A DNA stretch of 58,278 nucleotides, taken from IMG/VR virus record IMGVR_UViG_3300032069_000867, positions 1 to 58,278 of that record. One strand, 5' to 3'. Shown here piece by piece: positions 193 to 39,321 of this stretch. Every line of letters begins with the position of its first letter. The first letter of the stretch is position 1. A program made the position numbers and the translations under genes. Source of the DNA: a virus. Lineage: Duplodnaviria > Caudoviricetes. The notes under the pieces were generated by a model. The model did no database searches and was not told the DNA's origin. It worked only from the letters and a program-made list of their open reading frames with translations.

Positions 193-658
193 CAGCATCC
201 TGAAGCAGATCGCGGATCTGGGGCGGCTACCAGCCCGAGACCTGCAAGACCGTTGGCGAGAACTGCATGGCAGCGAGCCGCCGGGGTACAACCGCACCTT
301 CCTGACCAAGCGGCTCGCTTACCGCCTCCAGGAGCTCGCACACGGCGGTCTGTCCGACACTACCCGCAGCCAGATGGCCGACGTCCTGCGAGTGGCGAAG
401 CTGAACGAGGACGGTGCCATCGGCGGAAACGGGCGGCAGGGGAAGCGCGACCGCGACCTTCCGACAGCCGGCACGCGCCTGGTGCGAGAGTGGAACGGCA
501 GGCGCTATGAGGTGACGGTGCTCGTGAAGGGCTTTGAGTTCGAGGGGCGGCGCTACCGGTCGCTTACGGCAATCACCAAGGCTATCACGGGCACCCACTG
601 GAATGGCCGCGCCTTCTTTGGCCTGCGGCCACCTAACGGAGGTGAGAGAGCGCGATGA
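185..658 (+). CDS. DUF2924 domain protein (recombinase-associated)
   Basis: ATG 185 after GGAGG; motifs LAYRLQE...GG and GTRLVREWNG...YRSLTAITKAITGTHWNGRAFFGL. Confidence 0.9.
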   Translation: MSDSILKQIADLGRLPARDLQDRWRELHGSEPPGYNRTFLTKRLAYRLQELAHGGLSDTTRSQMADVLRVAKLNEDGAIGGNGRQGKRDRDLPTAGTRLVREWNGRRYEVTVLVKGFEFEGRRYRSLTAITKAITGTHWNGRAFFGLRPPNGGERAR

Positions 659-2244
659 GACGAGAAGAGCGAGCGCCCACCAACCCGCGGCCTGTCCGCT
701 GTGCAATCTACACGCGCAAGAGTACCGAGGAGAATCTGGACAACGAGTTCAACAGCCTGGATGCCCAACGTGAGGCGGGGGAGGCTTACATTGCGAGCCA
801 GCGCCACGAGGGGTGGGTAGCTCTGCCTGCCCGTTATGATGACGGCGGATTCTCCGGCGGCACCTTGGAGCGGCCCGCCTTGCAGCGCTTGCTGCAAGAC
901 GTGGAGGCGGGGCTTGTCGACTGCGTCATGGTCTACAAGGTGGACCGCCTCTCCCGGTCGCTGCTGGACTTCGCCAGAATCGTTGAGGCTTTCGACCGGC
1001 GGGAGGTCTCATTCGTCTCGGTCACCCAGCAGTTCAACACTACCACCTCGATGGGCCGACTCACCCTGAATATCTTGCTGTCTTTCGCCCAGTTCGAGCG
1101 CGAAATCATCGGCGAGCGCATTCGGGACAAGGTGGCGGCTACCAAGCGCAAGGGCAAGTACTGCGGTGGCATGCCGGTGCTCGGCTATGACGTGGACCGC
1201 GACCGAAAGCGCCTCGTCGTCAACGAAGAGGAGGCCAGGCTTGTCCGCCACGTCTTCGCTCGTTTCGTCCAGGCGGGCTCGACGACGCTGCTGGCGCAGG
1301 AGATGAATGCCCAGGGGCACACCACCAAGTCTTGGGTCACGAAGGCCGCAAGGCTTCACGCCGGCCGCCCCTGGAGCAAAGCGGACATCTACCGGGTGCT
1401 CAACAATCCCCTCTACATCGGCGAGGTTACCCACAAGGGAGAACGCTTTCCCGGCGAGCAGGACCCCATCGTGCCCCTCCACCTGTGGGAAGAGGCGCAT
1501 GCGATCCTGGCGCGCAACTACCGGGCGCGGGCGGCGCAGACGCGAGCCGAGACGCCTGCGCTGCTGCGGGGTATTCTCCACTGCGGCCACTGCCACTGCG
1601 CCATGGGGCCGACGTTCACGAAGCGCCGCGGCAAGCTCTACCGCTACTACCTCTGCGTCCACGCCTCGAAGAACGGCTATGGCTCCTGCCCCACGAAGAC
1701 GCTGGCCGCGGCTGAGGTCGAGCAGGCGGTAGTGGACCAGCTTCGCGGTATCTTCCGCTCGCCGGAGGTGGTCGCCAGGACCTTCCGCGCCGCTCGGCAG
1801 CAAATGACTGAACACCTCGACCATCTCTCCCGACGGCGCGCCGATGCAGAGCTGGCGCTCCACGCGGTGAAGGAAGAGGCCGCGCGCTTAGTCGCTGCCA
1901 AGGGCGACGAGGGAGCATCCTTGCCTATTGCCCGCCGCCTGGGTGAACTGCGCGGCCTCATCGAGGAACAGGAGCAGACCCTGGACAGAGTTGCCTCCCA
2001 GATGCACCAGGCCGAGCAGGCCGCCTTCAGCGAACAAGAGGTGGTCGAAGCGTTGTCCTCGCTTGACCCCGTCTGGGAGGAACTCTTCCCCGATGAACAG
2101 TCGCGCATTCTCCATCTCCTGGTAGAACGAGTGGACATCCAGCCCGACGGGGCCGAGGTGCGCATCCGGGCTGACGGGCTGCGCTGCCTGGTTGCGGAAC
2201 TGCGTGATGGCGCCCGAATCAGGTCACAGGCGGTGGCACGATGA
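655..2244 (+). CDS. Large serine recombinase (integrase)
   Basis: IYTRKST catalytic Ser, DGGFSGG..ERPAL, VDRLSRS, recombinase domain, Zn ribbon CGHC...YYLC...C, coiled coil. Confidence 0.96.
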   Translation: MRREERAPTNPRPVRCAIYTRKSTEENLDNEFNSLDAQREAGEAYIASQRHEGWVALPARYDDGGFSGGTLERPALQRLLQDVEAGLVDCVMVYKVDRLSRSLLDFARIVEAFDRREVSFVSVTQQFNTTTSMGRLTLNILLSFAQFEREIIGERIRDKVAATKRKGKYCGGMPVLGYDVDRDRKRLVVNEEEARLVRHVFARFVQAGSTTLLAQEMNAQGHTTKSWVTKAARLHAGRPWSKADIYRVLNNPLYIGEVTHKGERFPGEQDPIVPLHLWEEAHAILARNYRARAAQTRAETPALLRGILHCGHCHCAMGPTFTKRRGKLYRYYLCVHASKNGYGSCPTKTLAAAEVEQAVVDQLRGIFRSPEVVARTFRAARQQMTEHLDHLSRRRADAELALHAVKEEAARLVAAKGDEGASLPIARRLGELRGLIEEQEQTLDRVASQMHQAEQAAFSEQEVVEALSSLDPVWEELFPDEQSRILHLLVERVDIQPDGAEVRIRADGLRCLVAELRDGARIRSQAVAR

Positions 2245-2847: not shown

Positions 2848-2852
2848 CTAGC

Positions 2853-2881: not shown

Positions 2882-2901
2882 CTCTTCCTTGGAGACCTGC
2901 C

Positions 2902-3531: not shown

Positions 3532-3547
3532 CAGGAAGGAGAGAGGG

Positions 3548-25205: not shown

Positions 25206-25576
25206 AGGTCTACGTAGCAGGCCCATACACCCCGGATGACGGGCGGGAGGAGACACGCCTGGCGAACATTCGCTGCGCCAGCGAGGCGGCTCAGCAACTG
25301 CTCAAGGCAGGGCACACGCCGTTCTGTCCGCACACGATGACCGCTGGGTGGGAGCAGACGTGTGACTACGACGATTTCCTCCGGCTGGGCATGGAGTGGC
25401 TGGCGGCCTGCGACGCCATCCTGCTGCTGCCGGGCTGGGAGCAGAGCCAGGGAGCGCGGCGAGAGCATGAGGAGGCTGTGACGTTGGGTCTGTTGATCGT
25501 GCATGACCTGGAGAGTCTGGTTTCCGCCTCCGCCCAGGCTATGGCGGACAAGTCGGGAGGTGTGGACCGTGCCTGA
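25202..25576 (+). CDS. DUF4406-like (nucleoside deoxyribosyltransferase fold) protein
   Basis: VYVAGPY...CDAILLLPGWEQSQGARREH. Confidence 0.85.
   Translation: MKVYVAGPYTPDDGREETRLANIRCASEAAQQLLKAGHTPFCPHTMTAGWEQTCDYDDFLRLGMEWLAACDAILLLPGWEQSQGARREHEEAVTLGLLIVHDLESLVSASAQAMADKSGGVDRA
25514..25567 (+). repeat. REP-like hairpin plus flanks, duplicated at 34414-34466
   Basis: AGTCTGGTTTCCGCCTCCGCCCAGGCTATGGCGGACAAGTCGGGAGGTGTGGAC. Confidence 0.8.
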
Positions 25577-26234
25577 GATGATCTCGCGAGAGCGCATTCG
25601 ACCGAATGAGTGGAACGCCAACGCCTTCGACCCGGCCAACTACCCCAAGCTGGTGGAGAGCATCCGGGAGAAGGGCATCATGGAGCCGCTCAAGGTCATG
25701 CCCGATCCGGAGCATGAGGGTGACTTCCTGCTGGTCGACGGCTATCATCGCTGGAAGGCGGTCGGCGATCTTGGCCTGGAGGAACTGCCCTGTGAGGTCT
25801 GGCACATCTCGCCTGAAGAAGCGAAAGTCAGAGGACTGCAACTGAACTACCTGCGCGGCCAGCCGGTCCCGGTCCGGCTCGCCAACCTGGTGCATGATCT
25901 GAATCGCACCTACTCGGTGGATGACCTGGCGAACATGCTGCCCTGGTCGGAGAGCCAACTGCGGGATTCGTTGGAGTTGCTGAAGCTTCCGGCCGACCTG
26001 CAGGGCAAGCTGGAGGAACAGGCCAGGCAGGAGGCGGCGGAAGCGCCCATACCCGTCACAGTCGTGCTGCTGGGCAAGGAGCATGACTCCTTCGAAGCGG
26101 CGATGCAGCAGGCAAAACAGCGACTGGGCAAGGGCGCACGGCGGGGAGAGTGCCTGGCGGCGATCTGCAGCCACTACGTCATGGGCCCCGCCTCTTCAGA
26201 AGACAACGCAGAGACGGAGACGGCGGATGACTGA
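25569..26234 (+). CDS. ParB/Srx-like protein
   Basis: PNEWNAN...LVESIREKG...LVDGYHRWKA; GTG after GGAGGT. Confidence 0.88.
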   Translation: MPEMISRERIRPNEWNANAFDPANYPKLVESIREKGIMEPLKVMPDPEHEGDFLLVDGYHRWKAVGDLGLEELPCEVWHISPEEAKVRGLQLNYLRGQPVPVRLANLVHDLNRTYSVDDLANMLPWSESQLRDSLELLKLPADLQGKLEEQARQEAAEAPIPVTVVLLGKEHDSFEAAMQQAKQRLGKGARRGECLAAICSHYVMGPASSEDNAETETADD

Positions 26235-27570
26235 GCGATTGGCGCCAGCGAGCGCTGAAGAGTATGAGGTGGAACTCTGGCCCATCGCGCGCCTGCAGGC
26301 CAACCCTCGCAACTACCGCTCGCATCCGCCGGAGCAGATACAGGTGCTGCGAGCGAGTCTGCTGCGCCACGGGCAGCAAAAGCCCATCGTTGTCGCCCCG
26401 GACGGTGTGATCCTGGCCGGGCACGGGGTGCTGGAGGGGGCAGAAGCGGCCGGCTGGCAGGAGGTGGCGGTCAAGGTCTACACCGGCAGCAATCCGGGAG
26501 CCTACCTGCTCGATGATAACGAGACAGTCCGTCTCGCAGTTGACGACGAGCAGATCCTGGCTCGTCTGCTGCAAGAGCGCCAGGAAGCCGGGACACTGGA
26601 TTCCACCGGCTGGGATGAAGATTCGCTGCGTGAGTTTCTCTCCCGCTTGGAGACAGGACAGGAATCCGGACTGGTCGACCCGGGCCCGGGCGAGCCGCCA
26701 GCCGAGCCTTTCACGCGGGCCGGTGATGTCTGGCAGTTGGGAGAGCATCGGTTAGTCTGCGGGGATGCACGCGACCCGGCGATACTGGACTTGCTTCTGG
26801 AAGGCAGCAAAGCACAACTGGCTATCACCTCGCCTCCCTACGGCGTCGGCAAGGAGTACGAAGAGAAAGGGATCACGCCCTGGTTCGAGACAGTCAAGCC
26901 GGTGATCGAGAACCTGGGCCGGTGTGCCGAGATCGTCTGCTGGCAGATGGTGGACCTGTATGCCACCGGCACCCAGTTCATCGAGCCCACGCTCGCCTAT
27001 TCCATCCAACTCTTCATGCAGGCGGGGATGCGGCCCATCTGGATTCGTATCTGGGAAAAGCAGGGCTTGAACTTCGGGGTGGGGCCTTATCACCTCGTCT
27101 CCAACAAGCCGGCCCAGCAGTATGAATATGTGGCGACCTTCGCGGACGAGCACGCCGCGTTGGACATGCCGGAAGAGAGGCCTTATGCCTTCGTGACCGC
27201 CTTCGCCCGGGCGCAGCATCGCTTTGTGCAACGGCTGACCCAGGCGGAGCGCAAGGCCTGGGGATATGCAGGCGTCTGGAAGATCAACACCGTGCCCGCG
27301 AACGACGTGCATCCGGCGATGTTCCCGGTTGAGCTGCCAGAGCGCTGCTTGAAGATGCACTCGGATGTGGGTGGACTGATCCTGGAGCCATTCTGCGGGG
27401 CGGGAACGACCTTGATTGCGTCCGAACGGCTGGGACGGCGTTGCCGTGCGGTGGAACTGCAGCCGGCCTACTGCGATGTCACCATCGAGCGCTGGCAACG
27501 GATGACAGGCAAGATGGCGGTACGCGTCTCTGATGGCGCGCGGTTTCCCAGGCGTGCGGAGGCGGGATAA
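26227..27570 (+). CDS. ParB-like N-terminus fused to N4/N6 DNA methyltransferase
   Basis: NPRN...ILAGHG; GDVWQLGEHRLVCGD, TSPPY, HPAMFP, EPFCGAGTT. Confidence 0.93.
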   Translation: MTERLAPASAEEYEVELWPIARLQANPRNYRSHPPEQIQVLRASLLRHGQQKPIVVAPDGVILAGHGVLEGAEAAGWQEVAVKVYTGSNPGAYLLDDNETVRLAVDDEQILARLLQERQEAGTLDSTGWDEDSLREFLSRLETGQESGLVDPGPGEPPAEPFTRAGDVWQLGEHRLVCGDARDPAILDLLLEGSKAQLAITSPPYGVGKEYEEKGITPWFETVKPVIENLGRCAEIVCWQMVDLYATGTQFIEPTLAYSIQLFMQAGMRPIWIRIWEKQGLNFGVGPYHLVSNKPAQQYEYVATFADEHAALDMPEERPYAFVTAFARAQHRFVQRLTQAERKAWGYAGVWKINTVPANDVHPAMFPVELPERCLKMHSDVGGLILEPFCGAGTTLIASERLGRRCRAVELQPAYCDVTIERWQRMTGKMAVRVSDGARFPRRAEAG

Positions 27571-27607: not shown

Positions 27608-28177
27608 ATGCCGCGAGGGACGCCGGAAGAACGAGAGGCGATTGCGCGCCGGCAGGAGCGGGTCTGGCACTTGCGCGTGGTGCGCAAACTGACCGAACAC
27701 GAGGTCAGCCAGCTCATGAGCATCTCGCGGCGCACCATCACCCGCGACCTGGCGGCGATGCGAGCGCGAGGGCAGTCCGCGGTAGCCCTCTCGGCGGCTT
27801 CAGAGAAAGCGGTGGTGGACGCGGGTCTGCAGGCGGTCTCGGAGTTGGATGCCATCGTGCGGCAGGCCTGGACGGACTGCATGGCCGCTCCCGACGGATC
27901 GCTGGCGCGGGTGGGCTATCTCAACCTCGTTCTCAAATCCATCGGGGAACGGCTGCGCATCCTGCAGTCCCTTGGACTGATGAAGAAGGTTCCGGAGGAG
28001 GTGTTGCTTGGTGACCTCGATTTGCGACAACTCAGCGACAGCGAGGCCGAATCTGCCCTTACCTTCCTCCGCGCGTGTGCGAGAGGCGCTGGAGGCCCGG
28101 CTGGCGGCCCTGCTCGAGGAGCGGCGGAATCCCAGGCCGTGGATCGAAGCGAACCTGTGGATTCGCACGAAGGATAG
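27608..28177 (+). CDS. Putative terminase small subunit (HTH)
   Basis: N-terminal HTH (EVSQLMSISRRTITRDL); directly upstream of terL. Confidence 0.7.
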   Translation: MPRGTPEEREAIARRQERVWHLRVVRKLTEHEVSQLMSISRRTITRDLAAMRARGQSAVALSAASEKAVVDAGLQAVSELDAIVRQAWTDCMAAPDGSLARVGYLNLVLKSIGERLRILQSLGLMKKVPEEVLLGDLDLRQLSDSEAESALTFLRACARGAGGPAGGPARGAAESQAVDRSEPVDSHEG

Positions 28178-29633
28178 GCGAGTGATTCCGTTCCTGCTCA
28201 ACGCGGCCCAGGTAGATTACTGGGATCACCGTACGCTTCGGGACATGATTCTGAAGCCGCGGCAACTCGGCTTCACGACGCTGATCTGCGGCCTGTTCTT
28301 CGCGGACACTTTGCTGCGACTGAATACGACTTCGGTGATCGTGGCGCACGATACCGATTCCAGCGAGAAGATCTTCCGCATCGTGCAGTTGTTCTGGGAG
28401 CGGCTGCCAGAGGAGGAGCGACGGCGGGTGGGGCCGCCGCGTTTCTCCAACCGCCGAGAGTTCCTGTGGCCGAAGATCAACAGCCAGTTCTACGTGGGCA
28501 CCGCCGGCAGCCTGACCTTCGGACGGGGACAGACCATCAACAACCTGCACTGCTCGGAGTTCGCCTTCTGGCCGAAGCCTGAAGAAGCCCTGACTGCGCT
28601 GACGGAAGCGGTGCCCACCGGTGGCCGAATCGTCATCGAGTCCACCGCGAATGGGATGGGCAACTTCTTTCACAGCCTTTGGACCGAGGCCAAAAGCGGC
28701 GGCAATGACTTTGCGACAGCGTTCTATGTCTGGTGGGAAGACCCGGCCTATCGGATCGCGGGCGAGCCACTGACCGACCTCAGCCAGGAGGAGACGCGGC
28801 TCAAGCGCGCGTGGAGCCTTGACGACGATCAGATTCGTTGGCGGCGCGATAAGCAGCGGCAGCTTCGAGACCGCTTCAAGGCCGAATACCCTGAGGATGA
28901 TGTGACTTGCTTCCTCGCCAGCGGGCGCTGCTGCTTTGATATCAGCGCGCTTGTCGCTGCGCAGGCGCGCATCGCCGCCGAGCCCGCGCCGGTTGTGCTT
29001 GCTTCGCTCAAGGGCACCAGGAGCAGCGACCTCAGCGTCGCTCCTGCGCGTTTGTCGATCTGGAAAAGGCCGGAGGCGGGTCGGCAGTATGTCGTCGGCG
29101 CGGACGTGGGCGAAGGGCTGGCGGGTGGCGATGCATCATCTGCCTGTGTGCTTGACCGGGAGAGTGGGGAGCAGGTCGCCGAACTCCACGGGCGCATCCC
29201 GCCGGATCGTTTTGGCCACCTGCTGGATGCCCTGGGCCGCTTCTACAACCTGGCGACGGTGGCGGTGGAGCGCAATAACCACGGTCACTCCACGCTCAAC
29301 ACGCTGCGGAATGTCTGCCGCTACCCGCGGCTCTACTACCACGTGCGCTACGACCAGACGGGCAAAGGGAAGCCCATGCTCGGCTGGCCGACCGACCAGG
29401 CCACCAAGCCGATCCTGGTGGATGACCTGGCGGCGGCGATCGCGGGCGGGCACCTGCTGATCCATTCGCCCGACCTGGTGGACGAGTGCTTGACCTTTGT
29501 AACCACGGATACCGGCTCTCAGGAGGCGCAGGAGGGCAAGTTCGATGACCGGGTGATGGCGGCCGGCATCGCCTGGCAGGCGCGCAAGCGGGGCGTGTCG
29601 CGCGGCACGACACAACGGCCGGCGGGGTGGTAG
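28077..29633 (+). CDS. terL: Terminase large subunit (start uncertain, 28008-28077)
   Basis: LKPRQLGFTT, LHCSEFAFW, ESTANG, GADVGEG, VERNNHG, DDRVMA. Confidence 0.93.
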   Translation: MREALEARLAALLEERRNPRPWIEANLWIRTKDRRVIPFLLNAAQVDYWDHRTLRDMILKPRQLGFTTLICGLFFADTLLRLNTTSVIVAHDTDSSEKIFRIVQLFWERLPEEERRRVGPPRFSNRREFLWPKINSQFYVGTAGSLTFGRGQTINNLHCSEFAFWPKPEEALTALTEAVPTGGRIVIESTANGMGNFFHSLWTEAKSGGNDFATAFYVWWEDPAYRIAGEPLTDLSQEETRLKRAWSLDDDQIRWRRDKQRQLRDRFKAEYPEDDVTCFLASGRCCFDISALVAAQARIAAEPAPVVLASLKGTRSSDLSVAPARLSIWKRPEAGRQYVVGADVGEGLAGGDASSACVLDRESGEQVAELHGRIPPDRFGHLLDALGRFYNLATVAVERNNHGHSTLNTLRNVCRYPRLYYHVRYDQTGKGKPMLGWPTDQATKPILVDDLAAAIAGGHLLIHSPDLVDECLTFVTTDTGSQEAQEGKFDDRVMAAGIAWQARKRGVSRGTTQRPAGW

Positions 29634-30015: not shown

Positions 30016-30083
30016 GGCGACTTGGCGAAACACCTCGGTGGTTCGCCAGGGCGGCTATGTTTACCGTCAGGTTGGAGCAAACC

Positions 30084-31184
30084 ATGCCAGCGATCAAAGA
30101 GAGAGATCTGACAGCACAGACCGCCCAGCGCCTTCGGCAGGTGCTGGAGGAAGTGCCATTCGTGGATGTGCTGCGGATCGAGCAGCAGGTACCCATCGCG
30201 CCCGGCCGCGTGTCCGACCTGGTGGTGGAGATTCAGACGCCCGTCGGAGCGCGCCGGCTCCTGGTGGAGGTGAAGACAGAGGGTCTTCCGAGGACCCTGC
30301 GTGACGCCGGAGAGCAGCTCAAGGCTTATGTCACGAGTCTGCCAGATGCCTACGGGGTGGTGGCTGCTCCCTACATAAGCGACCGGGGCCGGGCTCTCTG
30401 CCAGCAGCTCGGGGTCGGCTGTCTCGATCTCGCTGGGAATGTTCTGCTCGCCTTTGACCAAGTGTTCATTGAGAAGACCGGATACCCCAATCCCTCGCCC
30501 GTGCGGAAACTTCGGAGGGCGCTGTTCTCACCGCGGTCCACGCGGGTCTTGCGTGTCCTGCTCGCCGACCCTGCGCGGCGGTGGTACGTCCGCGACCTGG
30601 CGGCCGAAGCGCGGATCAGTCTTGCGCAGACCTCCAACTTGAAGCGGGTGCTGCTCGAACAAGACCTGCTGGGCGAAGAGCGCCGCCGCTTCTGGCTGGC
30701 GAAACCTGACGACCTCCTTCGCGATTGGGCGCAGGCCTACACCTACGAAGTGAACGACGTGCGGTCTCTGTACTCGATGCTCCGCATTCCAGAGGTGGAG
30801 GAGCGCCTTGCCGCGGAGTGTGAACGGAGAGGCATGCGCTACGGCTTGGCCCTGTTCTCGGGTGCAAGCCGGGTTGCCCCTTTCGCTCGCTATGACCGCG
30901 CCTTTGCATTCGTTGATGAGAGACCTGACGAGATTGCAGCGGCATTGGAGTTGAAGGCGGTCCCCACGGGGGCCAACGTGATCCTGCTCCGCCCCTACGA
31001 TGAGGGCGTCTTCTACGCGCTCCAGGACGTCGGGGGAGCGAAGGTCGTGTCGGACATCCAACTTTACCTCGACTTGAGGAGCTACAAGGGCCGTGGCGAA
31101 GAGGCCGCAGACTTCCTCTACGAAAGGCGCATCAAGCCGCGATGGAACCCAGAACCCGATCAGACTACACAGCCAGAGCAGTAG
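30084..31184 (+). CDS. Type IV TA antitoxin, AbiEi-like
   Basis: N-terminal D...EVK segment, central wHTH, C-terminal VSDIQLYLDL...GRGEEAA. Confidence 0.85.
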   Translation: MPAIKERDLTAQTAQRLRQVLEEVPFVDVLRIEQQVPIAPGRVSDLVVEIQTPVGARRLLVEVKTEGLPRTLRDAGEQLKAYVTSLPDAYGVVAAPYISDRGRALCQQLGVGCLDLAGNVLLAFDQVFIEKTGYPNPSPVRKLRRALFSPRSTRVLRVLLADPARRWYVRDLAAEARISLAQTSNLKRVLLEQDLLGEERRRFWLAKPDDLLRDWAQAYTYEVNDVRSLYSMLRIPEVEERLAAECERRGMRYGLALFSGASRVAPFARYDRAFAFVDERPDEIAAALELKAVPTGANVILLRPYDEGVFYALQDVGGAKVVSDIQLYLDLRSYKGRGEEAADFLYERRIKPRWNPEPDQTTQPEQ

Positions 31185-31999
31185 ACGCCGCCTTTTCGGT
31201 GCTCATCGAGTTGTTCGGCATGCTCGGCGAGTTCCGCGAACACATCGCGGTCATCGGCGGCTGGGTGCCGCACCTGATCCTCCGCGATGCAGACACAGAG
31301 CCAGCGGGCACCTTGGACGTGGATCTGGCCATAGACTTTGCGCACATCTCGGACGATACCTACAGCACGTTCCTCAAGGCGCTTGAGACGCGCGGCTACC
31401 GACAAGACCACGAGCAGCCCTTCCGATTCTTCAAGGCGGTCACCATCGGAGATGGCCCGCCGGTCGAGGTCGAAGTTGATCTCCTGGCCGGAGAGTACGG
31501 GGGGACCGGGAAGGGCCGCCGCACGCAGGTCGTCCAGGATGTCCGAGCCCGCAAAGCACGTGGGGCTGACTTGGTCTTCGACCACTGCGTCCAGGTTCGC
31601 GTCGAGGGACGGCTGCCGAACGGTGCGCTTGACACGGTGACCGTGAAGGTCGCAGACGTGGTGGCCTTCCTCGTGATGAAGGGAATGGCTCTTCATGACC
31701 GGCGCAAGGAGAAGGATTGCTACGACATCTTCTACTGCGTCGCCAACTACCCAGGAGGTGTTGCTGCCTTGGTAGAGGCCTTCCGGCCTCATATCGACAA
31801 GCGGCTGGTGGCTGAAGGCTTGTCGAAGATACGGAGCAAGTTCCTCTCACCTGAGCATTTCGGGCCGGTCGCGGTCGCTGAGTTTCTTGAGATCGCCGAT
31901 CCGGAGGAGCGTGCCATCGTGACTCGCGATGCCTATGAGCGCCTGAATGCGCTCCTGGAGCAACTGCAAGTCAGGCTCTGGGAGGATTCCCCGGCGTAA
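31142..31999 (+). CDS. AbiEii-like nucleotidyltransferase toxin
   Basis: VIGGW...TLDVDL; MKGMAL.DR..EKD.YDI. Confidence 0.85.
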   Translation: MEPRTRSDYTARAVDAAFSVLIELFGMLGEFREHIAVIGGWVPHLILRDADTEPAGTLDVDLAIDFAHISDDTYSTFLKALETRGYRQDHEQPFRFFKAVTIGDGPPVEVEVDLLAGEYGGTGKGRRTQVVQDVRARKARGADLVFDHCVQVRVEGRLPNGALDTVTVKVADVVAFLVMKGMALHDRRKEKDCYDIFYCVANYPGGVAALVEAFRPHIDKRLVAEGLSKIRSKFLSPEHFGPVAVAEFLEIADPEERAIVTRDAYERLNALLEQLQVRLWEDSPA

Positions 32000-32000
32000 C

Positions 32001-32732
32001 ATGATCAGATTTGGGATCAGGCAATCATTTAACACCCTCGACCAGTTTGCCGCACGCTATCGCGAGCGTCGGATTCCTCTCGAGCTGGCGCTGCCTTACA
32101 GGATGACGGACTACGAACTGATCCGCCCTCACCTCACTGAACTCGCCGACTTGCTCGTGCAGTGGCAGACGCCGATCCTCAGCCTTCATGCTCCACAGGG
32201 CAGGCTCGCCGAGCCAGGTTTCCGGATCTGGGCGGAGGAGGTGGGGCGGTTCGCTGCTGCACTGCGAGTCCGTGAGATCACCCTCCACCCCAGCCGGTTT
32301 CAGAAGGATCGGCCCGTGCATGAACTCCAGCACACGGTATTGCGCATCTGCCAAGAGATTGAAGCAGCATATTCGGTGATCTTTTGCCTGGAAACCTTCA
32401 CGGGAGGCAAGCGACTCTTCAGTATCGACGACATCATGCGATTCGAACGTCCGATGACGCTGGATGTTGCCCACCTTCATGACACGGAAGTGGTGTGGCG
32501 GATCGTGCATCAGTACCATCCGCATATCTCCACCGTCCATCTCTCCGGCAAGGGCGGCGACAGAACGCATCACCTGCCCATCGATGACGAGTGCTTGCAG
32601 GTTGTGGAAGCCTTGGTCAGGTATGGCTGGCAGGGAAATGTCATCCTCGAATATCTTCCCGACTATCATGATCGCCTGGAGGAGGACTTTCAGTTGCTGC
32701 AACAGAGATTCTGTGGCACAACCACTGCTTGA
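32001..32732 (+). CDS. AP-endonuclease-2 / xylose-isomerase-like TIM-barrel protein
   Basis: SLHAP, TLHP, CLET, TLDVAH, VHLS, HLP, ILEY metal-ligand pattern; starts 1 nt after the toxin stop. Confidence 0.85.
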   Translation: MIRFGIRQSFNTLDQFAARYRERRIPLELALPYRMTDYELIRPHLTELADLLVQWQTPILSLHAPQGRLAEPGFRIWAEEVGRFAAALRVREITLHPSRFQKDRPVHELQHTVLRICQEIEAAYSVIFCLETFTGGKRLFSIDDIMRFERPMTLDVAHLHDTEVVWRIVHQYHPHISTVHLSGKGGDRTHHLPIDDECLQVVEALVRYGWQGNVILEYLPDYHDRLEEDFQLLQQRFCGTTTA

Positions 32733-32865: not shown

Positions 32866-34368
32866 GTGGCACTTGACCTGAGCACTTACCCGCCCAAGGG
32901 GCACCAGGAGCGCATCGCCACTTACCAGCGGTATGAGCGGCTGTTCCTGGGGCAGCACAAGCTGGTCTTTGCGGTGGTGCCGCAGCCCTACCAGATGAAG
33001 CGCTATATCGTGGCCAACTTCGCCGGGCTGATCTCGCGGCTTTCCGCTGACCTGCTTTTCGGGGAGCAGCCAGACTTCCTTTCGGCTTCGCTCAAGGCAG
33101 GCCTGGCAACACAGGAGGATGAGAAGGCGCAGGAAGCGCTGGCCCAGGTCGTCAGTCGCAATAACCTGCACGCCGTCAACTACGAATCGGCTCTGTCCAA
33201 CTCGTTTCGCGGGGACGCAGTCTACAAGGTTCGCTGGGGCAAGCGGACTCCGACGGCGGAGGCACCAGAGTCTATCATCGAGGAGGTGCCTGCCAGCATC
33301 TACTTCCCAGAACTGGATGACGATGATGTGCGGCGCGTGCTGCGGGTGACGCTGGCCTGGGTGAAGCGTGATCCGAAGGATACCAAGCGTGCCTACCTGC
33401 GGGCCGAGGTGCACGAGCCAGGTGTCATCCGGCATCAACTGTTTGACCTGGGCAGCGTCTCCACTCTGTCCGTCGCTGGAGGCCAGGCCGCGACGATCAC
33501 GATTGGCGGTAAGGCGCTCCAGCAGATTCCTCTGAAGACCCTCGAGGCCTACCAGGACTTGCCAGAGGAGGAACAGACCGGTCTGGATCACGTCCCGATC
33601 TTCCACGTGCCCAACTTCCGCTATGGCTCCCGTTTCTGGGGGATCAGCGACTACGAGGGGCTGGAGTCGCTCTTCGAGTCCCTGAACAACCGCGTCTCCC
33701 AGATCGACGAGGTGCTGGACAAGCACGTGGCTCCGAAGATCGTGGTGCCGCCCGGCTTCGTGGACGAAGATGGGAAGATTCGCTTCGACCACATGGAGAC
33801 CATCGAGCTGGGGCCGGGCGATCAGCCGCCCTCCTACATCACCTGGGACGCCCACCTGACCGCGGCCTTCACGCAGTTCGAGAAACTCCTTGATCTGCTG
33901 TTCATGCTCTCCGAGACCGCGCCGTCGGCTTTCGGGCTGGACAAGTTCGGAGTCGCCGAAAGCGGCCGGGCGCTGCGGCTTCGCCTGCTGCGCACGCTGG
34001 CGAAGATCAACCGGAAGCGGCTCTACTACGATACCGCGCTGAAGGCGGCGCTGCTCACCGCCCAGGTTCTCGACGTGACCCACGGCTCTGGCGAATACGA
34101 ACCTGCCGAGCCAACCATCCAGTGGGCGGACGGGCTGCCGGAGGACATGGTCGAGATGGTGGAGATCGAGAGCCAGCGGCTGGCGGCAGGCAACACGTCG
34201 GTTGAATCCTCGGTGCGTCGGCTGGACGGCCCAGACGCCGTGGAGGCCGAGATGGCGCGGATCGGGGAGGAGACGGGACAGGCAACTACTCTCACCGGGG
34301 CGGCTGGCGGTAAGGGGCAGGAAGCCCGCACTGAGGACCAGCCGGAGGCCGGGGCAGAGGGCGCCTGA
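32866..34368 (+). CDS. Portal protein (SPP1 gp6-like)
   Basis: VANFAGLI...ADLLFGE, HVPN...WGISDY, ESGRAL; position after terminase. Confidence 0.92.
   Translation: MALDLSTYPPKGHQERIATYQRYERLFLGQHKLVFAVVPQPYQMKRYIVANFAGLISRLSADLLFGEQPDFLSASLKAGLATQEDEKAQEALAQVVSRNNLHAVNYESALSNSFRGDAVYKVRWGKRTPTAEAPESIIEEVPASIYFPELDDDDVRRVLRVTLAWVKRDPKDTKRAYLRAEVHEPGVIRHQLFDLGSVSTLSVAGGQAATITIGGKALQQIPLKTLEAYQDLPEEEQTGLDHVPIFHVPNFRYGSRFWGISDYEGLESLFESLNNRVSQIDEVLDKHVAPKIVVPPGFVDEDGKIRFDHMETIELGPGDQPPSYITWDAHLTAAFTQFEKLLDLLFMLSETAPSAFGLDKFGVAESGRALRLRLLRTLAKINRKRLYYDTALKAALLTAQVLDVTHGSGEYEPAEPTIQWADGLPEDMVEMVEIESQRLAAGNTSVESSVRRLDGPDAVEAEMARIGEETGQATTLTGAAGGKGQEARTEDQPEAGAEGA
33078..33102 (+). repeat. Possible REP-like insertion in portal
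   Basis: CCTTTCGGCTTCGCTCAAGGCAGGC, hairpin-like; reads LSASLKAG in frame; single copy in the window. Confidence 0.45.
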
Positions 34369-34501: not shown

Positions 34502-36568
34502 GTGCCTCCACCCATCGGGCGTCGACGCATTGAGGAATTCCGGCGGGCATTCACCGGCGAGATTGACTCGCTGGCTGCCCTCTACCGCGACGCGGCCGCA
34601 GACATGATGGACGTTCTCGCGGACGCGGCGACGCTCGCTGGACAGCGGGGCCGGGCGGTCGCCCTGCTGCGGCAGTACCAGACCATCCTCGCCGACCTGG
34701 GCGATGAGGCTGCGGCGTGGATAGAGTTTAACATCCCGCGCGCTTACGATATCGGGCTGGAGTTCGGCGACGAGGGGATTCGCAACATCCGCCGTGCCGG
34801 AATCAACCTGCGACGTCGAGGCACGACGATAACGGGTCGCAGGGAGCGGGAGGTGTTCTCCCAGGTGCACCGGGAAGCGGCGCGGGCAATCACGGAGTCC
34901 ATGCTGCAGACCACCAATGCGGCGCTTGCTCAGATTGGCCGCCGCGTGGATGATGTCTTCCGCCGCGAAGGAATGCTGGCTGTCGCCAGGGGGATCGCAG
35001 CAGGCCGCGCCCGAGTCGAGGTGAGTCGGGAACTGGAGCAGCGGCTGATTGCTGCGGGCAGGCCGACGTTCGTGGATGCGCTGGGGCGGCAATGGCCCCT
35101 CGACCGCTATGCCGAGATGGTAGCCCGCACCACCACCCGCGAGGCCATGACCCAGGGCACCATCAACCGGCTGCGCGAGCACAGCGTCACCCTCGCTCAA
35201 GTATCGGCGCACAATGCGGAAGACTTCTGCCGCTACTACGAAAACGCCATTGTCTCCCTGGACGGCTCGCACCCTGTCTACCCGCCGATCTCGGCGATCA
35301 ACGGCCCCCCGCCCTGGCATCCGAACTGTATCCACGTGCTCACGCCCTTCGTGGAGCGCCTAGCGACTGACGAGGAGAAGAAACGGGGCATCATCTCGCC
35401 CGACCTGCTCAACAAGCCTCCGGCCGAACTCCAGCGGCGCTTCCGCAAGGAGTTTCCTGGCGTGGCCCGGGCCGCGGGAAAGCGAGGGCTTGCACGGGCG
35501 GGGCGGGCAAGGGTTGCCGCGGCGCGAGGGCGGCCCAAGCCCACACGGGCGCATGCCCCCGAGCCTGAGCTGCGCGCCCTGGAGGAGGGGACTGTCCTGC
35601 GCCGCACCTACAAGGGCCGCGAGTACCTCGTCCAGGTGGTGGAGGGAGGCAAGGTCTACTTCGAGGGCGGCGTCTATCACTCGCTGACCGATGTCGCCCG
35701 GATCATCACTGGGCAGAGGGCAATCAGCGGGCCGGCTTTCTTCGGCGTGGCGGAGCGCGGCAAGCGCACCGGGCAGGCCGTGGCCGCCGCGCGGCCCGTC
35801 GCTGCTCCGCCCAAGCTGCCGAAGCCGAAGACAGACCTGGAACTGACGGGGCGCACTTGCGATGACTTGGCTGAGATGATGGGCGCGAAGCATGGATGGA
35901 ATGGAGACTTGCGCACCGGTCGAGGCGCCTTCGGCGGGCACAAGGACTGGGACTGCGCCATCAGCATCGGCTCGGAGGCAAGGGATCGCGTGGATGCGAT
36001 GCTGAAGCACGATGCAGCTTCCTGGGCAAAGCTTTCCCGGAACCAGAAGATGGAAATGACCTCTTCCTTCAACACCCTGGTGCATGAGGCGACTCATGCT
36101 ATGGGGGTGGAGGGGGCAATCAAGACCCACGAGTACGCGACGGCGGCGCAGCGGTGGATAGAGGAAGGCCTTACCGCCGCGGGGGCCGACGAGACGGCGC
36201 CGAAGCTCTTCGAGCGGATCATGGGGTTCCCCTCCGGCCTGGACAAGCGCGACTTTGCCGGGATGGCAAGCTACAGCGATTACCAGCAGGCCCTGGCGAA
36301 GGCGCTCGGCGGGCCTTATGCCGGGCGCTCGATGTCTGAGCCAATGCGGGGGATTGACCCGAAGCTCTACCTGGACTTGGCCTACCGCACGCCTCGCGAC
36401 CAGCGGCTCTGGGAGCTATCGAAGCGCATGGAGAGCTACTACGGACGAACAGAGCGCGGCGTGAGAACGGCGGTGGAGATAGAAGCCATCGTAGGGCACT
36501 CGGCAGACCACAAAGTGGTGGTGAATTTCGCCGAAGAGGCCCTGGCACTACAGCAAGCGAGGCCGTAA
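34502..36568 (+). CDS. MuF-type minor capsid protein fused to a DUF2924-like domain and an HExxH metallopeptidase
   Basis: DALGRQW.LDRYAEMVART and PPWHPNCIH (minor capsid); GTVLRRTYKG...YHSLTDVARIITG...GPAFFG; LVHEATH...IEEG. Confidence 0.85.
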   Translation: MPPPIGRRRIEEFRRAFTGEIDSLAALYRDAAADMMDVLADAATLAGQRGRAVALLRQYQTILADLGDEAAAWIEFNIPRAYDIGLEFGDEGIRNIRRAGINLRRRGTTITGRREREVFSQVHREAARAITESMLQTTNAALAQIGRRVDDVFRREGMLAVARGIAAGRARVEVSRELEQRLIAAGRPTFVDALGRQWPLDRYAEMVARTTTREAMTQGTINRLREHSVTLAQVSAHNAEDFCRYYENAIVSLDGSHPVYPPISAINGPPPWHPNCIHVLTPFVERLATDEEKKRGIISPDLLNKPPAELQRRFRKEFPGVARAAGKRGLARAGRARVAAARGRPKPTRAHAPEPELRALEEGTVLRRTYKGREYLVQVVEGGKVYFEGGVYHSLTDVARIITGQRAISGPAFFGVAERGKRTGQAVAAARPVAAPPKLPKPKTDLELTGRTCDDLAEMMGAKHGWNGDLRTGRGAFGGHKDWDCAISIGSEARDRVDAMLKHDAASWAKLSRNQKMEMTSSFNTLVHEATHAMGVEGAIKTHEYATAAQRWIEEGLTAAGADETAPKLFERIMGFPSGLDKRDFAGMASYSDYQQALAKALGGPYAGRSMSEPMRGIDPKLYLDLAYRTPRDQRLWELSKRMESYYGRTERGVRTAVEIEAIVGHSADHKVVVNFAEEALALQQARP

Positions 36569-36570
36569 GC

Positions 36571-36798
36571 ATGTCCGATTTCATCGACGAACTACTGCGT
36601 GGAAGGAGGAAAGGGCACCGCATCCGGCCCGGCTTCATGGAAGAGGCGAGCGCCGCGATTATGCGGGCCGCTGGCACGCCGGAGGCCCGGCGGACCCTCC
36701 AGCGCTATCTCCGACGAGCCCGAGGCGGCCTGGAGCGCGCCCAGCTCATGCGCATGGAGGAGATGCTTGTCATGGCGGAGGGCGCCGGCGAGGATTGA
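36571..36798 (+). CDS. Small hypothetical protein (candidate immunity partner)
   Basis: 75 aa, starts 2 nt after the MuF stop; next promoter lies downstream. Confidence 0.6.
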   Translation: MSDFIDELLRGRRKGHRIRPGFMEEASAAIMRAAGTPEARRTLQRYLRRARGGLERAQLMRMEEMLVMAEGAGED

Positions 36799-36890
36799 CA
36801 AGCCCCCTCGGATCAGGTCAGGGGCGGACAGCAAGGCGCTGGCACGCAGCAGACCACCCCGCCCGGGACACAGGCCGCGGGAAGAGGGTA

Positions 36891-36918
36891 TTGACACCTG
36901 GCCCGGGTGCGATAGAAT
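36891..36918 (+). promoter_or_regulatory. Sigma70 promoter for scaffold/capsid/tail operon
   Basis: TTGACA-16-TAGAAT. Confidence 0.8.
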
Positions 36919-36924
36919 AGGGTG

Positions 36925-37027
36925 AACTGAATAGCATACCGCCGACTCGATAACGAGAGGCGGGCTTTCTGAGAGCTGTGCCTGGTAGCCCCAGGCGGCT
37001 CAGAGAAAGCCCGCCTCTTTGCTTTTT
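36925..37027 (+). ncRNA. Leader attenuator RNA, copy 3 (before head genes)
   Basis: GAATAG-N9-GA-CTCG-ATAA-CGAG-AGGCG; perfect 15-bp stem 36956-70/37004-18 followed by TTGCTTTTT. Confidence 0.78.
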
Positions 37028-37042
37028 CAGGAGATGCTGGAG

Positions 37043-37396
37043 ATGGCGATCCGGATTGACAACTCGACGGTTTCGGACAAGGCGTGGGGCGACGTGGACA
37101 AGGCCGCCCTGGCGCGGCGGCTTGCTGAGAACGGCGACGCCGCCGTGATACGGGAAGCCTTTGCCTACGTGCCTGACCTGGAGAACCGCAGCGAGTGGGG
37201 CGGGCCGCACCACGAACTCCAGGGAGACACCCTGGTCGTGAACCGCAACGGCGTGCATGCGTTGGCCGCTGCCCTGTCCGGCGCGCGCGGCGGAGTGAAG
37301 TGGCCTCCTTCGGCGCGGGTGGCCGCGCTGGCCCACGTGCGCAAGCACTACGGCGCAATGGATGAGGAGCCGCCGGAGGGCATGAGTGCCGAGTAA
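37043..37396 (+). CDS. Head-module hypothetical protein
   Basis: PHH...GVHALAAALSGARGG...AHVRKHY; GGAG RBS; first gene of the head operon. Confidence 0.75.
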   Translation: MAIRIDNSTVSDKAWGDVDKAALARRLAENGDAAVIREAFAYVPDLENRSEWGGPHHELQGDTLVVNRNGVHALAAALSGARGGVKWPPSARVAALAHVRKHYGAMDEEPPEGMSAE

Positions 37397-37492: not shown

Positions 37493-38356
37493 ATGAGCGA
37501 AGGAACCGAGAATCAGCAGGGACAGCAAGGAACTGGCAGCCAGGGTCAGGCCGACGCCCAGTCGGTCGGCTCAGAGCAGGCCGTCCAGGGCGCTAACGCC
37601 GCTCAGTCGGCAAGCGCCGGGCAGGCGGGCCAGCCCGCCGCGCAGACAGGCCAGTCCAGCACAGGCGGACAGCAACCTGCCCAGGGACAGCAAGCCGAGG
37701 GTGCCCAGACCCGCCAGACTGAGGGCGGGCAAGCTCAATCGCAAACGCCGGCGACACAGGCGAAGGGCATTCAGGTGAAGCTGAGCCAGGAGCAGATCGA
37801 CCGCCTGGTCAAGGACGGCACCCTGGAGTTGAGCGACGACACGTTCACCGGCGCGGTGCGGGATCGCATTGCGCAGTTGACTGCCCGCGCGAAGGGCGCC
37901 GAGCGGCGGCTGGCCGAGATCGCCGCCGCCCAGGAAGAGGCCGAACGCAAGGCCCTCGTGGAGCAGGAGCGGTTCAAGGAGCTCTACGAGAAGGAGCGCC
38001 AGGCGCGGGAGAAAGAGGCATCGGGCCGCAAGGACGACGCCATCCGCGCTCGCTTCCTGCTCGCCGCCCAGTCCAAGGGCGTCGTCGATCCCGATGTCGC
38101 CTTCATCATCGCTAGGTCGCTGCCCCCCTTCGGCGCGGTGCAGGTGGATGATGAGGGCAAGGTGACCGGCATCGACGAGGTCGTCGAGACGCTGGTCAAG
38201 GAGAAGCCCTACCTGGTCTCCCAGCCACAACAGCAACCGAAACCGCAAAGCGTGGGGGCGGCAAGCAACCCGGCTGAACAGAGCCCGCCGCCTCCCAAGA
38301 ATCTCGCCGAGGCTGGAGATCGCCTGGAGCAAGCACTGCGCACCGGCGTGACCTGA
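37493..38356 (+). CDS. Capsid scaffolding protein
   Basis: Low-complexity Q/G/A N-terminus, coiled coil, LVKEKPYL; precedes capsid gene. Confidence 0.85.
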   Translation: MSEGTENQQGQQGTGSQGQADAQSVGSEQAVQGANAAQSASAGQAGQPAAQTGQSSTGGQQPAQGQQAEGAQTRQTEGGQAQSQTPATQAKGIQVKLSQEQIDRLVKDGTLELSDDTFTGAVRDRIAQLTARAKGAERRLAEIAAAQEEAERKALVEQERFKELYEKERQAREKEASGRKDDAIRARFLLAAQSKGVVDPDVAFIIARSLPPFGAVQVDDEGKVTGIDEVVETLVKEKPYLVSQPQQQPKPQSVGAASNPAEQSPPPPKNLAEAGDRLEQALRTGVT

Positions 38357-38409: not shown

Positions 38410-39321
38410 ATGGCTGCGACCACAACCACGCTGGCCGAACTGATCGTCCAGCTATACAAGGGGCCGTGGGTGGAGGCCCTGTTCACCAACACTTTCCTGC
38501 TCACCCGCATCCAGCAGAAGCAGGGCGCGGGCGAGGGAGTCCGCTGGCCGGTGCGCTATGGCGGGAACACCTCCGCCGGCTCCTACGCGGAGACTGACAC
38601 CGGCGCGGGGGCAGGAAACCAGGGCTTCAAGAAAGCCTTCCTCGGCTGGAAGCTCAACAAGGTCGAGGTGGAGGTCTCCGGCCTGGCGCAGGCAGTCGGT
38701 GATGCGGGCGGGATGATCGTCCCCGCGCTGCGCACCGAACTCGACCTGGGTCTGTCGGATATGCGGGGCAACATCAACACCCAGTTGATGTCAGACGGCA
38801 CCGGCAACTCCGGCAAGGACGTCACCGGGCTGTTCGCAGCGATCGCCGACACCGGCACCTACGCCGGCCTTGACCGTGGGACTTATACCTGGTGGAAGTC
38901 CTACGTCAGCGCCAACGGCGGAACCCCGCGCAACCTCACCGAGGAACTAATACGCACCGTCAAGTCCGCGGTCGAGGCGCGAGGCGGTCGGGTGACGGAG
39001 ATCTACTGTGGCTCCACTCAGTGGTATCGCTACGGCGATCTGCTGAGGGCGGAGCGGCGCCAGCAGAATCCCACCAGTCTGACTGGAGGTTACCAGGCGC
39101 TCGACTTCGAGGGTGTCCCGGTGATCAAGGTGCCCGGCTACCCGCAGACACGCATGGACTTCGTGGACAAGGAGCTCCTGGAGTACGTCGTGCTCAAGGA
39201 CTTCGAGGCCAAGCCCATGGCGAAGACCAAGGACTCCGACGTGATCTGGGTCACTCATTACAGCCAGCTGGTCTGCCGCAACCCCTACCGCATGGGGAGC
39301 CTGCAAGACCTGGCGCAGTAG
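38410..39321 (+). CDS. Major capsid protein
   Basis: 303 aa after scaffold; DGTGNSGKDVTGL, YAGLDR, LDFEGVPVI, SQLVCRNP. Confidence 0.88.
   Translation: MAATTTTLAELIVQLYKGPWVEALFTNTFLLTRIQQKQGAGEGVRWPVRYGGNTSAGSYAETDTGAGAGNQGFKKAFLGWKLNKVEVEVSGLAQAVGDAGGMIVPALRTELDLGLSDMRGNINTQLMSDGTGNSGKDVTGLFAAIADTGTYAGLDRGTYTWWKSYVSANGGTPRNLTEELIRTVKSAVEARGGRVTEIYCGSTQWYRYGDLLRAERRQQNPTSLTGGYQALDFEGVPVIKVPGYPQTRMDFVDKELLEYVVLKDFEAKPMAKTKDSDVIWVTHYSQLVCRNPYRMGSLQDLAQ

Follow-up and report, generated by a model that had tools for sequence, protein, structure and literature searches.

We analysed a 688-amino-acid (aa) open reading frame (ORF; P0001) and the 75-aa ORF directly behind it in the 58,278-nucleotide (nt) virus record IMGVR_UViG_3300032069_000867 (Caudoviricetes), the whole of which is called the window here. 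The larger ORF (34502..36568, + strand) reads as a MuF domain, a basic linker, a RAMA domain, a further linker and a gluzincin-like domain. It is probable that its product is a MuF minor head protein with RAMA and gluzincin cargo, that the 75-aa protein is its cognate partner, and that the locus belongs to the MuF polymorphic-toxin/polyvalent class. The class itself is known; the new parts are the insertion of a RAMA domain in a MuF protein and a peptidase family with a small partner. Both ORFs are present where an earlier note on this DNA had placed them, the small one (36571-36798) with an ATG start. The GTG start of the larger ORF is consistent with homologues that begin M/V-PPPIGRR, and its G+C content at third codon positions (GC3) is 0.80.

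The N-terminal part of the 688-aa protein is a minor head domain of the MuF/SPP1 gp7 type (residues 47-292; 34640..35377, + strand). Phage_min_cap2 (PF06152) matched these residues with an E-value of 1.4e-19 and 70.7 bits against a cut-off of 26.3, and the PHROG family phrog_4611, 'minor head protein', matched the ORF with an E-value of 4.9e-37. Phage_Mu_F (PF04233) scored 17.3 bits on the same ORF, under its cut-off of 29.6. The gene lies directly 3' of a gene for an SPP1 gp6-like portal protein (32866..34368, + strand; PF05133; phrog_533, E 2.8e-47), which is the expected docking partner of the MuF domain. The order portal, 688-aa ORF, scaffold and major capsid gives it the position of SPP1 gene 7 after the portal gene. 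The profile match above cut-off and the slot directly behind the portal gene thus bear out the earlier proposal of a MuF-type head protein with cargo. SPP1 gp7, a member of the same Pfam family whose gene likewise lies behind the portal gene, attaches to the portal, goes into the procapsid in a few copies and is required if infection is to start efficiently (PMC6316719). Unlike the window protein, gp7 itself is described there without an enzymatic extension, and toxins fused to the C-terminus of gp7-like proteins are thought to use the gp7 portal/procapsid route (PMC6316719). The MuF domain of the window protein is followed by an Arg/Ala-rich basic linker (residues 300-352; 35399..35557, + strand) with a net charge of +12 over 53 residues, part of which falls within a DUF2924 profile match.

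Several relatives carry an intein (Pfam Hint_2/Vint/Intein_splicing) that splits the MuF domain in its most conserved motif, between FHP(R/N)C and CxHVLTPF. The carriers are L005 3571-6756 (P0004), P0012 and L014 762-2741, and also P0021, P0022, P0025 and P0030. The motif of the window is intact and holds no intein (…PPPWHPNCIHVLTPF…). Inteins in MuF genes may mark a functionally critical site.

The C-terminal part of the protein, residues 442-677 (35825..36532, + strand; residues 90-325 of the model described below), is a predicted gluzincin-like metallopeptidase domain. It holds the sequence HEATH (H528, E529 and H532; residues 528-532; 36083..36097, + strand), which would supply candidate zinc ligands and the catalytic base, and, in a W-[IL]-E-E motif, the residues E554-E555 (36161..36166, + strand), a candidate third zinc ligand. 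HEATH is the sole HExxH of the 688-aa protein and lies exactly where the earlier note had put it; the downstream EEG that the note described is E554-E555-G556 (36161-36169). At least one HExxH occurred in 548 of 20,000 composition-preserving shuffles (2.7%), so the motif alone is weak evidence. Across the family, LVHExTH followed by W[IL]EE was kept in all 13 proteins checked, down to 44-48% identity, and also in the further clades L012 and L013. The spacing from the second His to the Glu is 21-22 residues. The H, E, H and EE positions were invariant across clades with 44-58% identity, at which about 70% of the columns vary. A further conserved motif, GGHKDWDC (residues 478-485; 35933..35956, + strand), precedes a predicted beta strand and was invariant in 8 of 8 alignment rows; the most distant members have the looser forms GLKQW[DN]C or GAHKDYDC, and the model is of low confidence at this motif.

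An AlphaFold2 model of residues 353-688, built on a 13-row alignment, had a mean predicted local distance difference test (pLDDT) score of 79.2 and a predicted TM score (pTM) of 0.68, and its peptidase domain lay mostly at pLDDT 80-94. In the model, HEATH is on a predicted helix (161-180) and the Glu motif is on the next one (196-222, pLDDT about 90). The two motifs thus stand on successive helices, both predicted with confidence, as they do in gluzincins. The model was compared with 48,161 PDB representatives in a VIA structural search, which is independent of Foldseek. Among the 50 matches listed, 46 align to the C-terminal domain, and 39 of these 46 are zinc metallopeptidases by title (Z 4.2-7.9). 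We take the matched LTA4H, BepA, BlaR1, ACE2, ArdC and 6mdx (Spartan) to be such enzymes. The matches comprised M1 aminopeptidases (Z 6.0-7.9; for F3, 170 residues aligned, the root-mean-square deviation (rmsd) being 3.8), DPP III (Z 6.5), oligoendopeptidase F (Z 6.4), thermolysin (Z 5.4), BepA and BlaR1 (Z 5.3), the minimal gluzincin abylysin (Z 5.2, with 93 of its 105 residues aligned) and ArdC and Spartan (Z 4.4). The other seven of the 46 were three proteins of unknown function, TFIID, SnPolE, YbeY and a designed repeat. A second VIA look returned F3 at Z 8.1 with 172 residues aligned. What gives the structural evidence its weight is that the matches are nearly all of one kind and that they span the entire catalytic domain. 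Together, the predicted model and the zinc-metallopeptidase matches (Z 4.2-8.1 overall) favour a zincin, and specifically a gluzincin, fold for the HExxH domain, in which the earlier note had seen a zinc protease.

The likeness to M1 and thermolysin-type gluzincins extends to the order of the motifs, HExxH and then Glu on the next helix. Unlike M1 enzymes, the window domain has no GAMEN motif, no flanking M1 domains and no Pfam match, and it is only 8-15% identical to them. In M1 peptidases and thermolysin the second His and the Glu are 18-19 residues apart, as against 21-22 in the window family. The W-[IL]-E-E-[GA] of the family presumably recalls the 'WLNEG' motif of M1.

The 75-aa ORF (36571..36798, + strand) is the candidate cognate partner of the peptidase domain, as an inhibitor or immunity protein. 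It starts 2 nt past the stop of the MuF gene with a GAGG upstream, and its GC3 is 0.79; in other clades the start of the small ORF overlaps the MuF stop by 4 nt. With a profile of the small protein, the ORF was found in 13 of 13 loci that have the peptidase domain and downstream DNA (the window and 12 contigs). Left out of this count were L010/L040, which ends at a contig edge, and L001, which is truncated. The profile found no such ORF among the remaining related loci, that is, MuF loci lacking the domain, and MuF genes with other C-termini have unrelated small ORFs downstream or none. The strict co-occurrence and the adjoining or overlapping start bear out the earlier pairing of the small gene with the HExxH domain, to which it is tightly coupled. 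The core of the 75-aa protein is predicted to be helical. It has no family in Pfam, PHROG or NCBIfam and no usable match in the ESM Atlas. An overlapping 108-aa ORF (36599-36925) was rejected: its GC3 is 0.72 against 0.79, it is truncated in L006 and L007, and it has no counterpart in clade B.

A variable cassette (35777..37065, + strand), defined by the drop in nt identity to the clade-B locus L008, comprises the peptidase domain together with the small ORF and the intergenic region behind it. Identity to L008 was 32-67% in the 150-nt bins from 35716 to 37065, which cover the peptidase domain, the small ORF and the gap, as against 81-95% in the bins of the portal gene, MuF, RAMA, the ORF of about 125 aa behind the gap and the scaffold gene, save for three indel-containing bins at 71-76%. 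At the aa level, clade A is 89-93% identical to the window in the MuF N-domain, 75-99% in the RAMA domain, 90-95% in the peptidase domain and 88-96% in the small protein. For clades B and C the corresponding values are 90-92%, 92-96%, 54-58% and 33-42%, and for clade D they are 74%, 73%, 48% and 38%. RAMA shows its widest differences inside clade A, in which the peptidase hardly changes, so the two domains vary independently.

The peptidase domain was found almost wholly in MuF proteins. A word-indexed search of 5.8 billion entries gave ten matches, all of them MuF proteins and nine also with DUF2924, and a search among 1.84 billion gave five representatives, all MuF fusions or fragments. In IMG/VR, 13 loci in 2.9 million contigs carry the domain, and all 13 are MuF-linked. 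No copy was found in 50,697 isolated-phage records, and a collection of genomes from 185,579 species gave a single trace, a truncated remnant on the metagenome-assembled genome (MAG) contig L001. This distribution comes from single-sequence and word-limited searches, which may miss distant relatives. The L001 trace is a 191-aa ORF (1016-1591) made up of the RAMA piece plus the initial third of the peptidase domain. It has no MuF part and stands away from any phage genes, and it resembles what is left of a decayed prophage.

A search with the MuF N-terminus returned 39 proteins, and relatives that are 57-77% identical in this domain carry differing C-termini. P0016 has the same peptidase domain as the window. 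P0017, P0023 and P0028 end in what reads, by its R-S-ExE-like motif, as a domain of ADP-ribosyltransferase (ART) type, with a weak DRAT match in P0023 (E 0.0013). Unrelated HExxH domains stand at the C-terminus of P0018, P0020 and P0033, and P0036 combines an ART-like domain with a further HExxH domain. P0012 joins an intein, RAMA, the window-type peptidase domain and a second HExxH domain, an arrangement typical of 'polyvalent proteins'. At several related loci the MuF protein is without any C-terminal extension.

Between the MuF and peptidase parts lies a RAMA-like domain that corresponds to the C-terminal half of DUF2924 (residues 353-425; 35558..35776, + strand). DUF2924 (PF11149) matched residues 327-416 with an E-value of 5.3e-15 and 56.3 bits against a cut-off of 31.2, over positions 48-134 of the 135 in the profile; the excised piece alone gave an E-value of 6.9e-15 over positions 71-134. 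DUF2924 is therefore only partial in this protein, because the N-terminal half of the profile is missing. A full-length DUF2924 protein is encoded in the integration module of the same genome (125..658, + strand; PF11149, E 2e-46), and BLASTP aligned it with the RAMA piece at 25 of 54 identical residues (46%, E 8e-8). The homology between the two that the earlier note had read from paired peptides is therefore sound, and the peptide GTRLVREWNG... that it quoted for the integration module lies in ORF 125-658. The quoted MuF peptide, GTVLRR...FFGV, corresponds to residues 363-416 (35588-35749); the note had its end exactly and its start about 21 nt early.

In the AlphaFold2 model the RAMA piece had a pLDDT of 84-90. 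The best Foldseek matches in the PDB were the RAMA domain of MPND (ranks 1, 3 and 4; probability 0.96-0.97, 23-24% identity, TM score 0.42-0.46 on the target), with E-values of only 0.4-0.6 because the domain is small. The VIA search gave MPND at Z 6.2-6.5 and CcrM at Z 6.3, with 70-71 residues aligned. By sequence, the Pfam RAMA profile (PF18755) remained sub-threshold, at 12.7 bits (E 0.12; cut-off 35.2) on the window piece and at 25.7 and 22 bits in the relatives P0012 and P0016. On the model, the middle piece has the RAMA fold, a type that binds double-stranded DNA independently of its sequence. RAMA is stated to 'partly match' Pfam DUF2924 (PMC11342252), and the window piece shares with DUF2924/RAMA proteins a C-terminal beta-rich domain that ends ...ITG...G..FFG and matches solved RAMA structures. 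The RAMA domains of CcrM and MPND touch the DNA backbone without sequence specificity (PMC9963953), and RAMA was first proposed as a reader linked to N6-methyladenine (m6A), fused to methylases, nucleases and serine resolvases (PMC4738411). Eukaryotic MPND likewise joins RAMA to a metal-dependent peptidase (PMC4738411, PMC9963953), which is of the JAB/MPN type, whereas the peptidase partner in the window is a predicted zincin. A word-indexed search with residues 350-425, which is insensitive for a 76-aa query, gave nine matches, all to the same protein family. The natural variant P0008 has kept the peptidase domain and lost the RAMA domain.

The locus resembles the MuF polymorphic toxins in having an N-terminal MuF domain in the head module of a temperate phage, a C-terminus that varies among close relatives and a small ORF (75 aa, thus <150) directly after it. 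In one survey of 191 MuF toxins, 20% have a metallopeptidase, and an ORF of under 150 aa follows 89.4% of the toxins (PMC5576092). Its supplement names Peptidase_M10 in Listeria phage B054 gp4 and Peptidase_M3 in cyanophage MED4-184 as examples. The characterised MuF toxins are Apk2, a (p)ppApp synthetase, and Bxa, an ADP-ribosyltransferase, the Apk2 proteins having been the only ones before Bxa, and both are neutralised by small immunity proteins encoded next door (PMC11699363). As these two are the only ones that PMC11699363 gives as characterised, no MuF metallopeptidase is among them. Unlike the MuF toxins, the window peptidase matches no Pfam toxin or peptidase family and was not found outside MuF proteins, and RAMA/DUF2924 stands between MuF and the enzyme; the terms DUF2924, PF11149 and RAMA have no occurrences in one supplementary file of PMC5576092. 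Polyvalent proteins (Iyer et al. 2017) offer the second comparison. MuF and the metallopeptidase (MPTase) are hub domains of these proteins, whose peptidases, it was proposed, either process the fusion or, once injected, act against host proteins (PMC5512222). The window protein is likewise multi-domain and joins MuF to a zincin-like MPTase with the same predicted roles, and the MPTase is sometimes present in more than one copy, as in its relative P0012. It differs in having only three domains, and RAMA is absent from the main text of PMC5512222.

The earlier note had not recognised the three-domain architecture. The combination of MuF, metallopeptidase and small ORF has been published, so in this part the architecture is a known one; the RAMA insertion and the peptidase family were absent from those sources as far as we covered them. 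The literature on DUF2924 that we covered gave no RAMA/DUF2924 piece inside a MuF protein and no such peptidase family, with the supplements of PMC5512222, which may bear on both, lying outside this scope. The peptidase family is unknown to Pfam and the PDB and is provisionally new, as it could fall into one of the 12 MPTase clades of PMC5512222.

Since the locus fits the MuF polymorphic-toxin and polyvalent patterns, we read its product as a portal-docked, DNA-tethered virion cargo that would act after delivery. By analogy with gp7 and other MuF proteins, the MuF domain would dock on the portal and a few copies would be enclosed in the head. There the RAMA domain would hold the cargo on the packaged DNA, and the fusion protein would leave along with that DNA when a cell is infected. 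The target of the peptidase in the newly infected cell might be a host protein, or else the fusion, whose parts would thereby be set free. As long as it is in the producing cell, the peptidase would be kept inactive by the 75-aa protein; an inhibitor or 'immunity' protein is its most likely role as judged from the gene arrangement. Delivery, catalysis, target and inhibition are all inferred here by analogy with the systems compared above.

A number of observations weigh against this picture. The sequence and profile searches of Pfam, NCBIfam, PHROGs and the PDB gave no peptidase family for the C-terminal domain. At E <= 10, Pfam searches with eight family members returned Peptidase_M10 (0.056) and Aspzincin_M35 (0.11), in one member each, and nothing significant; PDB searches of the peptidase domain with phmmer and two profiles likewise returned nothing significant. 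Foldseek found no zincin in the PDB at E <= 0.001. Its best match in BFVD was an unannotated, uncharacterised Siphoviridae protein (E 0.02, probability 1.00, 248 columns). In the ESM Atlas the peptidase domain matched unnamed clusters (scores 0.94-0.95), among which the cluster at rank 7, with 18% of its members carrying Peptidase_M78, is merely a lead. The zincin fold comes from one predicted model built on 13 alignment rows; an earlier model of residues 431-688 alone (14-row alignment) reached a mean pLDDT of 46.2 and was not used. The VIA Z values are moderate, with a maximum of 8.1, in a range that the tool calls common for models without a clear match. The HExTH domain with its W[IL]EE is accordingly named here a predicted gluzincin metallopeptidase, with a candidate zinc site.

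The putative role of the small ORF as partner is drawn from linkage. Its divergence runs parallel to that of the peptidase (r 0.96, Mantel p ~0.002), as is expected for neighbours; the correlation counts as linkage and not as co-evolution, because adjacent genes show it without interaction. Its substitutions within clades fall 12/10/20 on the three codon positions, an about twofold third-position excess that is a weak bias and is compatible with a fast-evolving coding gene. The peptidase domain, finally, was found only fused to MuF, whereas a typical toxin domain recurs in different polymorphic-toxin families.

A morphogenetic or self-processing protease is one alternative. It would act only in the producing cell or procapsid, trimming the MuF fusion, the scaffold or other head proteins, and the small ORF would be an assembly chaperone. 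The search of the head module gave no prohead protease as a separate gene, and a weak match to phrog_595, 'head maturation protease' (E 0.004), was seen, although on the MuF part. On the other side, SPP1-type heads that use a scaffold are not known to need a protease. Phages whose portal, scaffold and 125-aa ORF genes are homologous have a MuF protein with no extension or with another C-terminal domain, so the peptidase domain is dispensable for this type of head. Divergence at three to four times the rate of its substrates is also not what one would expect of a core assembly enzyme. For MPTase domains such as that of P1 DdrB, autoproteolysis, either before packaging or after it, has been proposed (PMC5512222), which lends this alternative some precedent, and we hold it to be unlikely. 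Non-catalytic cargo, namely a pseudo-enzyme or a structural or DNA-organising domain that would, for instance, anchor the last-packaged DNA end at the portal, with the small ORF as an unrelated moron, is very unlikely in our estimate. The lack of a peptidase family by sequence and the chance occurrence of HExxH in 2.7% of the shuffles agree with it, as does the title of a reference cited by PMC6316719, in which gp7 is termed a DNA-binding protein. The invariance of H, E, H and EE at 44-58% identity, where about 70% of the columns are variable, argues against a non-catalytic domain. The predicted fold, moreover, matches active zincins over the whole catalytic domain, and the small ORF strictly co-occurs with that domain.

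The earlier note had also linked the protein to integration. The virion-delivered RAMA piece might work with the DUF2924/serine-integrase pair on the entering DNA, or the protease might cleave the LexA-like repressor or an AbiE-type antitoxin and so steer the choice between lysis and lysogeny. Cleavage of LexA and a part in anti-defence, both raised in the note, are conjectural. One domain family does occur twice in this genome, and DUF2924 is paired with a serine recombinase both in the window, where the recombinase gene (655..2244, + strand; Resolvase, Recombinase and Zn_ribbon_recom) overlaps the end of the DUF2924 gene, and in the unrelated Acidithiobacillus phage AcaML1, where the gene for the DUF2924-like Gp4 lies just upstream of a serine recombinase, the same gene pair as 125-658/655-2244. 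Over the same stretch, the RAMA piece is 52% identical to AcaML1 Gp4 and thus no nearer to the copy in its own genome (46%), and the MuF protein is without the N-terminal half of DUF2924. These two results speak against the specific link to integration. In addition, P0008 keeps the peptidase without RAMA, and the RAMA and peptidase parts recombine independently. Mildly toxic MuF peptidases have been speculated to guide the lysis-lysogeny decision (Jamet et al., PMC5576092); for the present locus, a part in integration or lysogeny strikes us as highly improbable. A recent intragenomic duplication of DUF2924 into the MuF gene was rejected on the same two identities.

Within the favoured reading of the locus as delivered MuF cargo, the RAMA-zincin pair could be a DNA-tethered protease that rides in on the phage genome and cleaves DNA-engaging proteins, such as restriction or defence proteins, nucleoid proteins or repressors. 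We regard this as a tentative and rather doubtful extension. It would make the protein a phage counterpart of ArdC or of the Spartan/Wss1-type DNA-dependent proteases, and its enzyme a new gluzincin family gated by a dedicated inhibitor of 60-90 aa that the producing cell would make. ArdC of plasmid R388 has a DNA-binding domain and a C-terminal zincin and serves incoming mobile DNA against restriction (PMC7213743; structure 6sna). The likeness goes no further than the logic of joining a DNA binder to a zincin; 6sna is among the structural matches (Z 4.4, 130 residues aligned). The window protein has RAMA where ArdC has ArdC-N, which binds single-stranded DNA; the context of ArdC is conjugation; and there is no sequence similarity and a weaker score than for the M1 peptidases. 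No match to the ArdC-N Pfam family was reported for the window protein at E <= 0.1. The tether might distinguish the phage's own methylated DNA, because the window encodes three methyltransferases and RAMA was proposed as an m6A reader (PMC4738411).

MuF-fused effectors represent a widespread, barely tested form of enzyme delivery by temperate phages along with their DNA, and the present locus is a compact case of it in four pieces. One would target the head and one would tether the protein to DNA; the other two are a predicted zinc protease and a candidate inhibitor, which varies along with the protease. Were this enzyme active and DNA-dependent, it would give the phage a way to aim a protease at whatever touches the incoming genome, and would add one more peptidase/inhibitor pair to the catalogue. 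If it only processed itself, the locus would be one more ordinary example of the polyvalent-protein theme. Because the family is rare, its ecological weight is small.

The gap behind the small ORF holds two further features. A match to a sigma-70-like promoter (TTGACA-16-TAGAAT, 11 of 12 positions; 36891..36918, + strand) lies in this variable gap, with one found against 0.3 expected from shuffles. About 40 nt downstream of it is a terminator-like 27-bp hairpin followed by a T-run (36955..37029, + strand; -58.4 kcal/mol, z -5.8), and 0 of 200 shuffles folded as well. The hairpin has no credible Rfam match, and its exact arms occur only in some clade-A loci. The two could serve to terminate the MuF operon, act as a promoter-terminator (antitermination) unit or encode a short RNA about 100 nt long. 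The hairpin ends where an ORF is called at 37019-37396, between MuF and scaffold. The product of this ORF (about 117-125 aa) is 89-99% conserved in all related loci, has no Pfam, PHROG or NCBIfam family and, in L025, L026 and L028, occurs twice in tandem, the copies having diverged. Its called TTG start overlaps the hairpin and the true start is probably near 37043; homologues begin MPIRIDN or VAIEIDN. At the clade-B locus L009, a gene for a 778-aa UvrD-like helicase (2807-5143) stands directly 3' of the small ORF in the same variable gap, which therefore acts as a moron insertion site.

The record is classified as a provirus and rated 100% complete at 58,278 bases, with nearly all genes on the + strand. 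From the 5' end, its modules are integration/immunity, replication/recombination with three DNA methyltransferase genes, terminase (28008-29633), an AbiEi/AbiEii-like pair and portal. These are followed by the 688-aa ORF, the 75-aa ORF, the conserved familyless ORF, scaffold (37493-38356) and SU10-type major capsid protein (38410-39321), the latter two assigned in a Pfam/PHROG scan, and by siphovirus-type tail genes. The large serine recombinase, a LexA-like repressor (2902-3531) and the provirus classification indicate a temperate lifestyle.

Other parts of the window are of note in their own right. Between terminase and portal lie an AbiEi_2-like regulator (30057-31184), an AbiEii-like nucleotidyltransferase (NTP_transf_8; 31142-31999) and, inserted along with this pair, a xylose-isomerase-like TIM-barrel/AP-endonuclease-2 protein (31947-32732). 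The segment 30057-32732 looks like a toxin-antitoxin or defence moron within the packaging module. A 1003-aa protein (12296-15307) has an AEP-TOTE primase-like domain (PF22548), and further on are an SbcD-like phosphoesterase (17951-19174) and an SbcC/Rad50-like ATPase (19171-21492); this set is unusual replication and recombination equipment for a temperate siphovirus. The three methyltransferase genes encode an N6_N4_Mtase (21887-23647), a D12-class N6-adenine methyltransferase (23991-25205) and a further N6_N4_Mtase (26083-27570), the last preceded by a ParB_N protein (25503-26234). The phage DNA is probably heavily methylated, which is possibly relevant to a DNA binder of the RAMA type.

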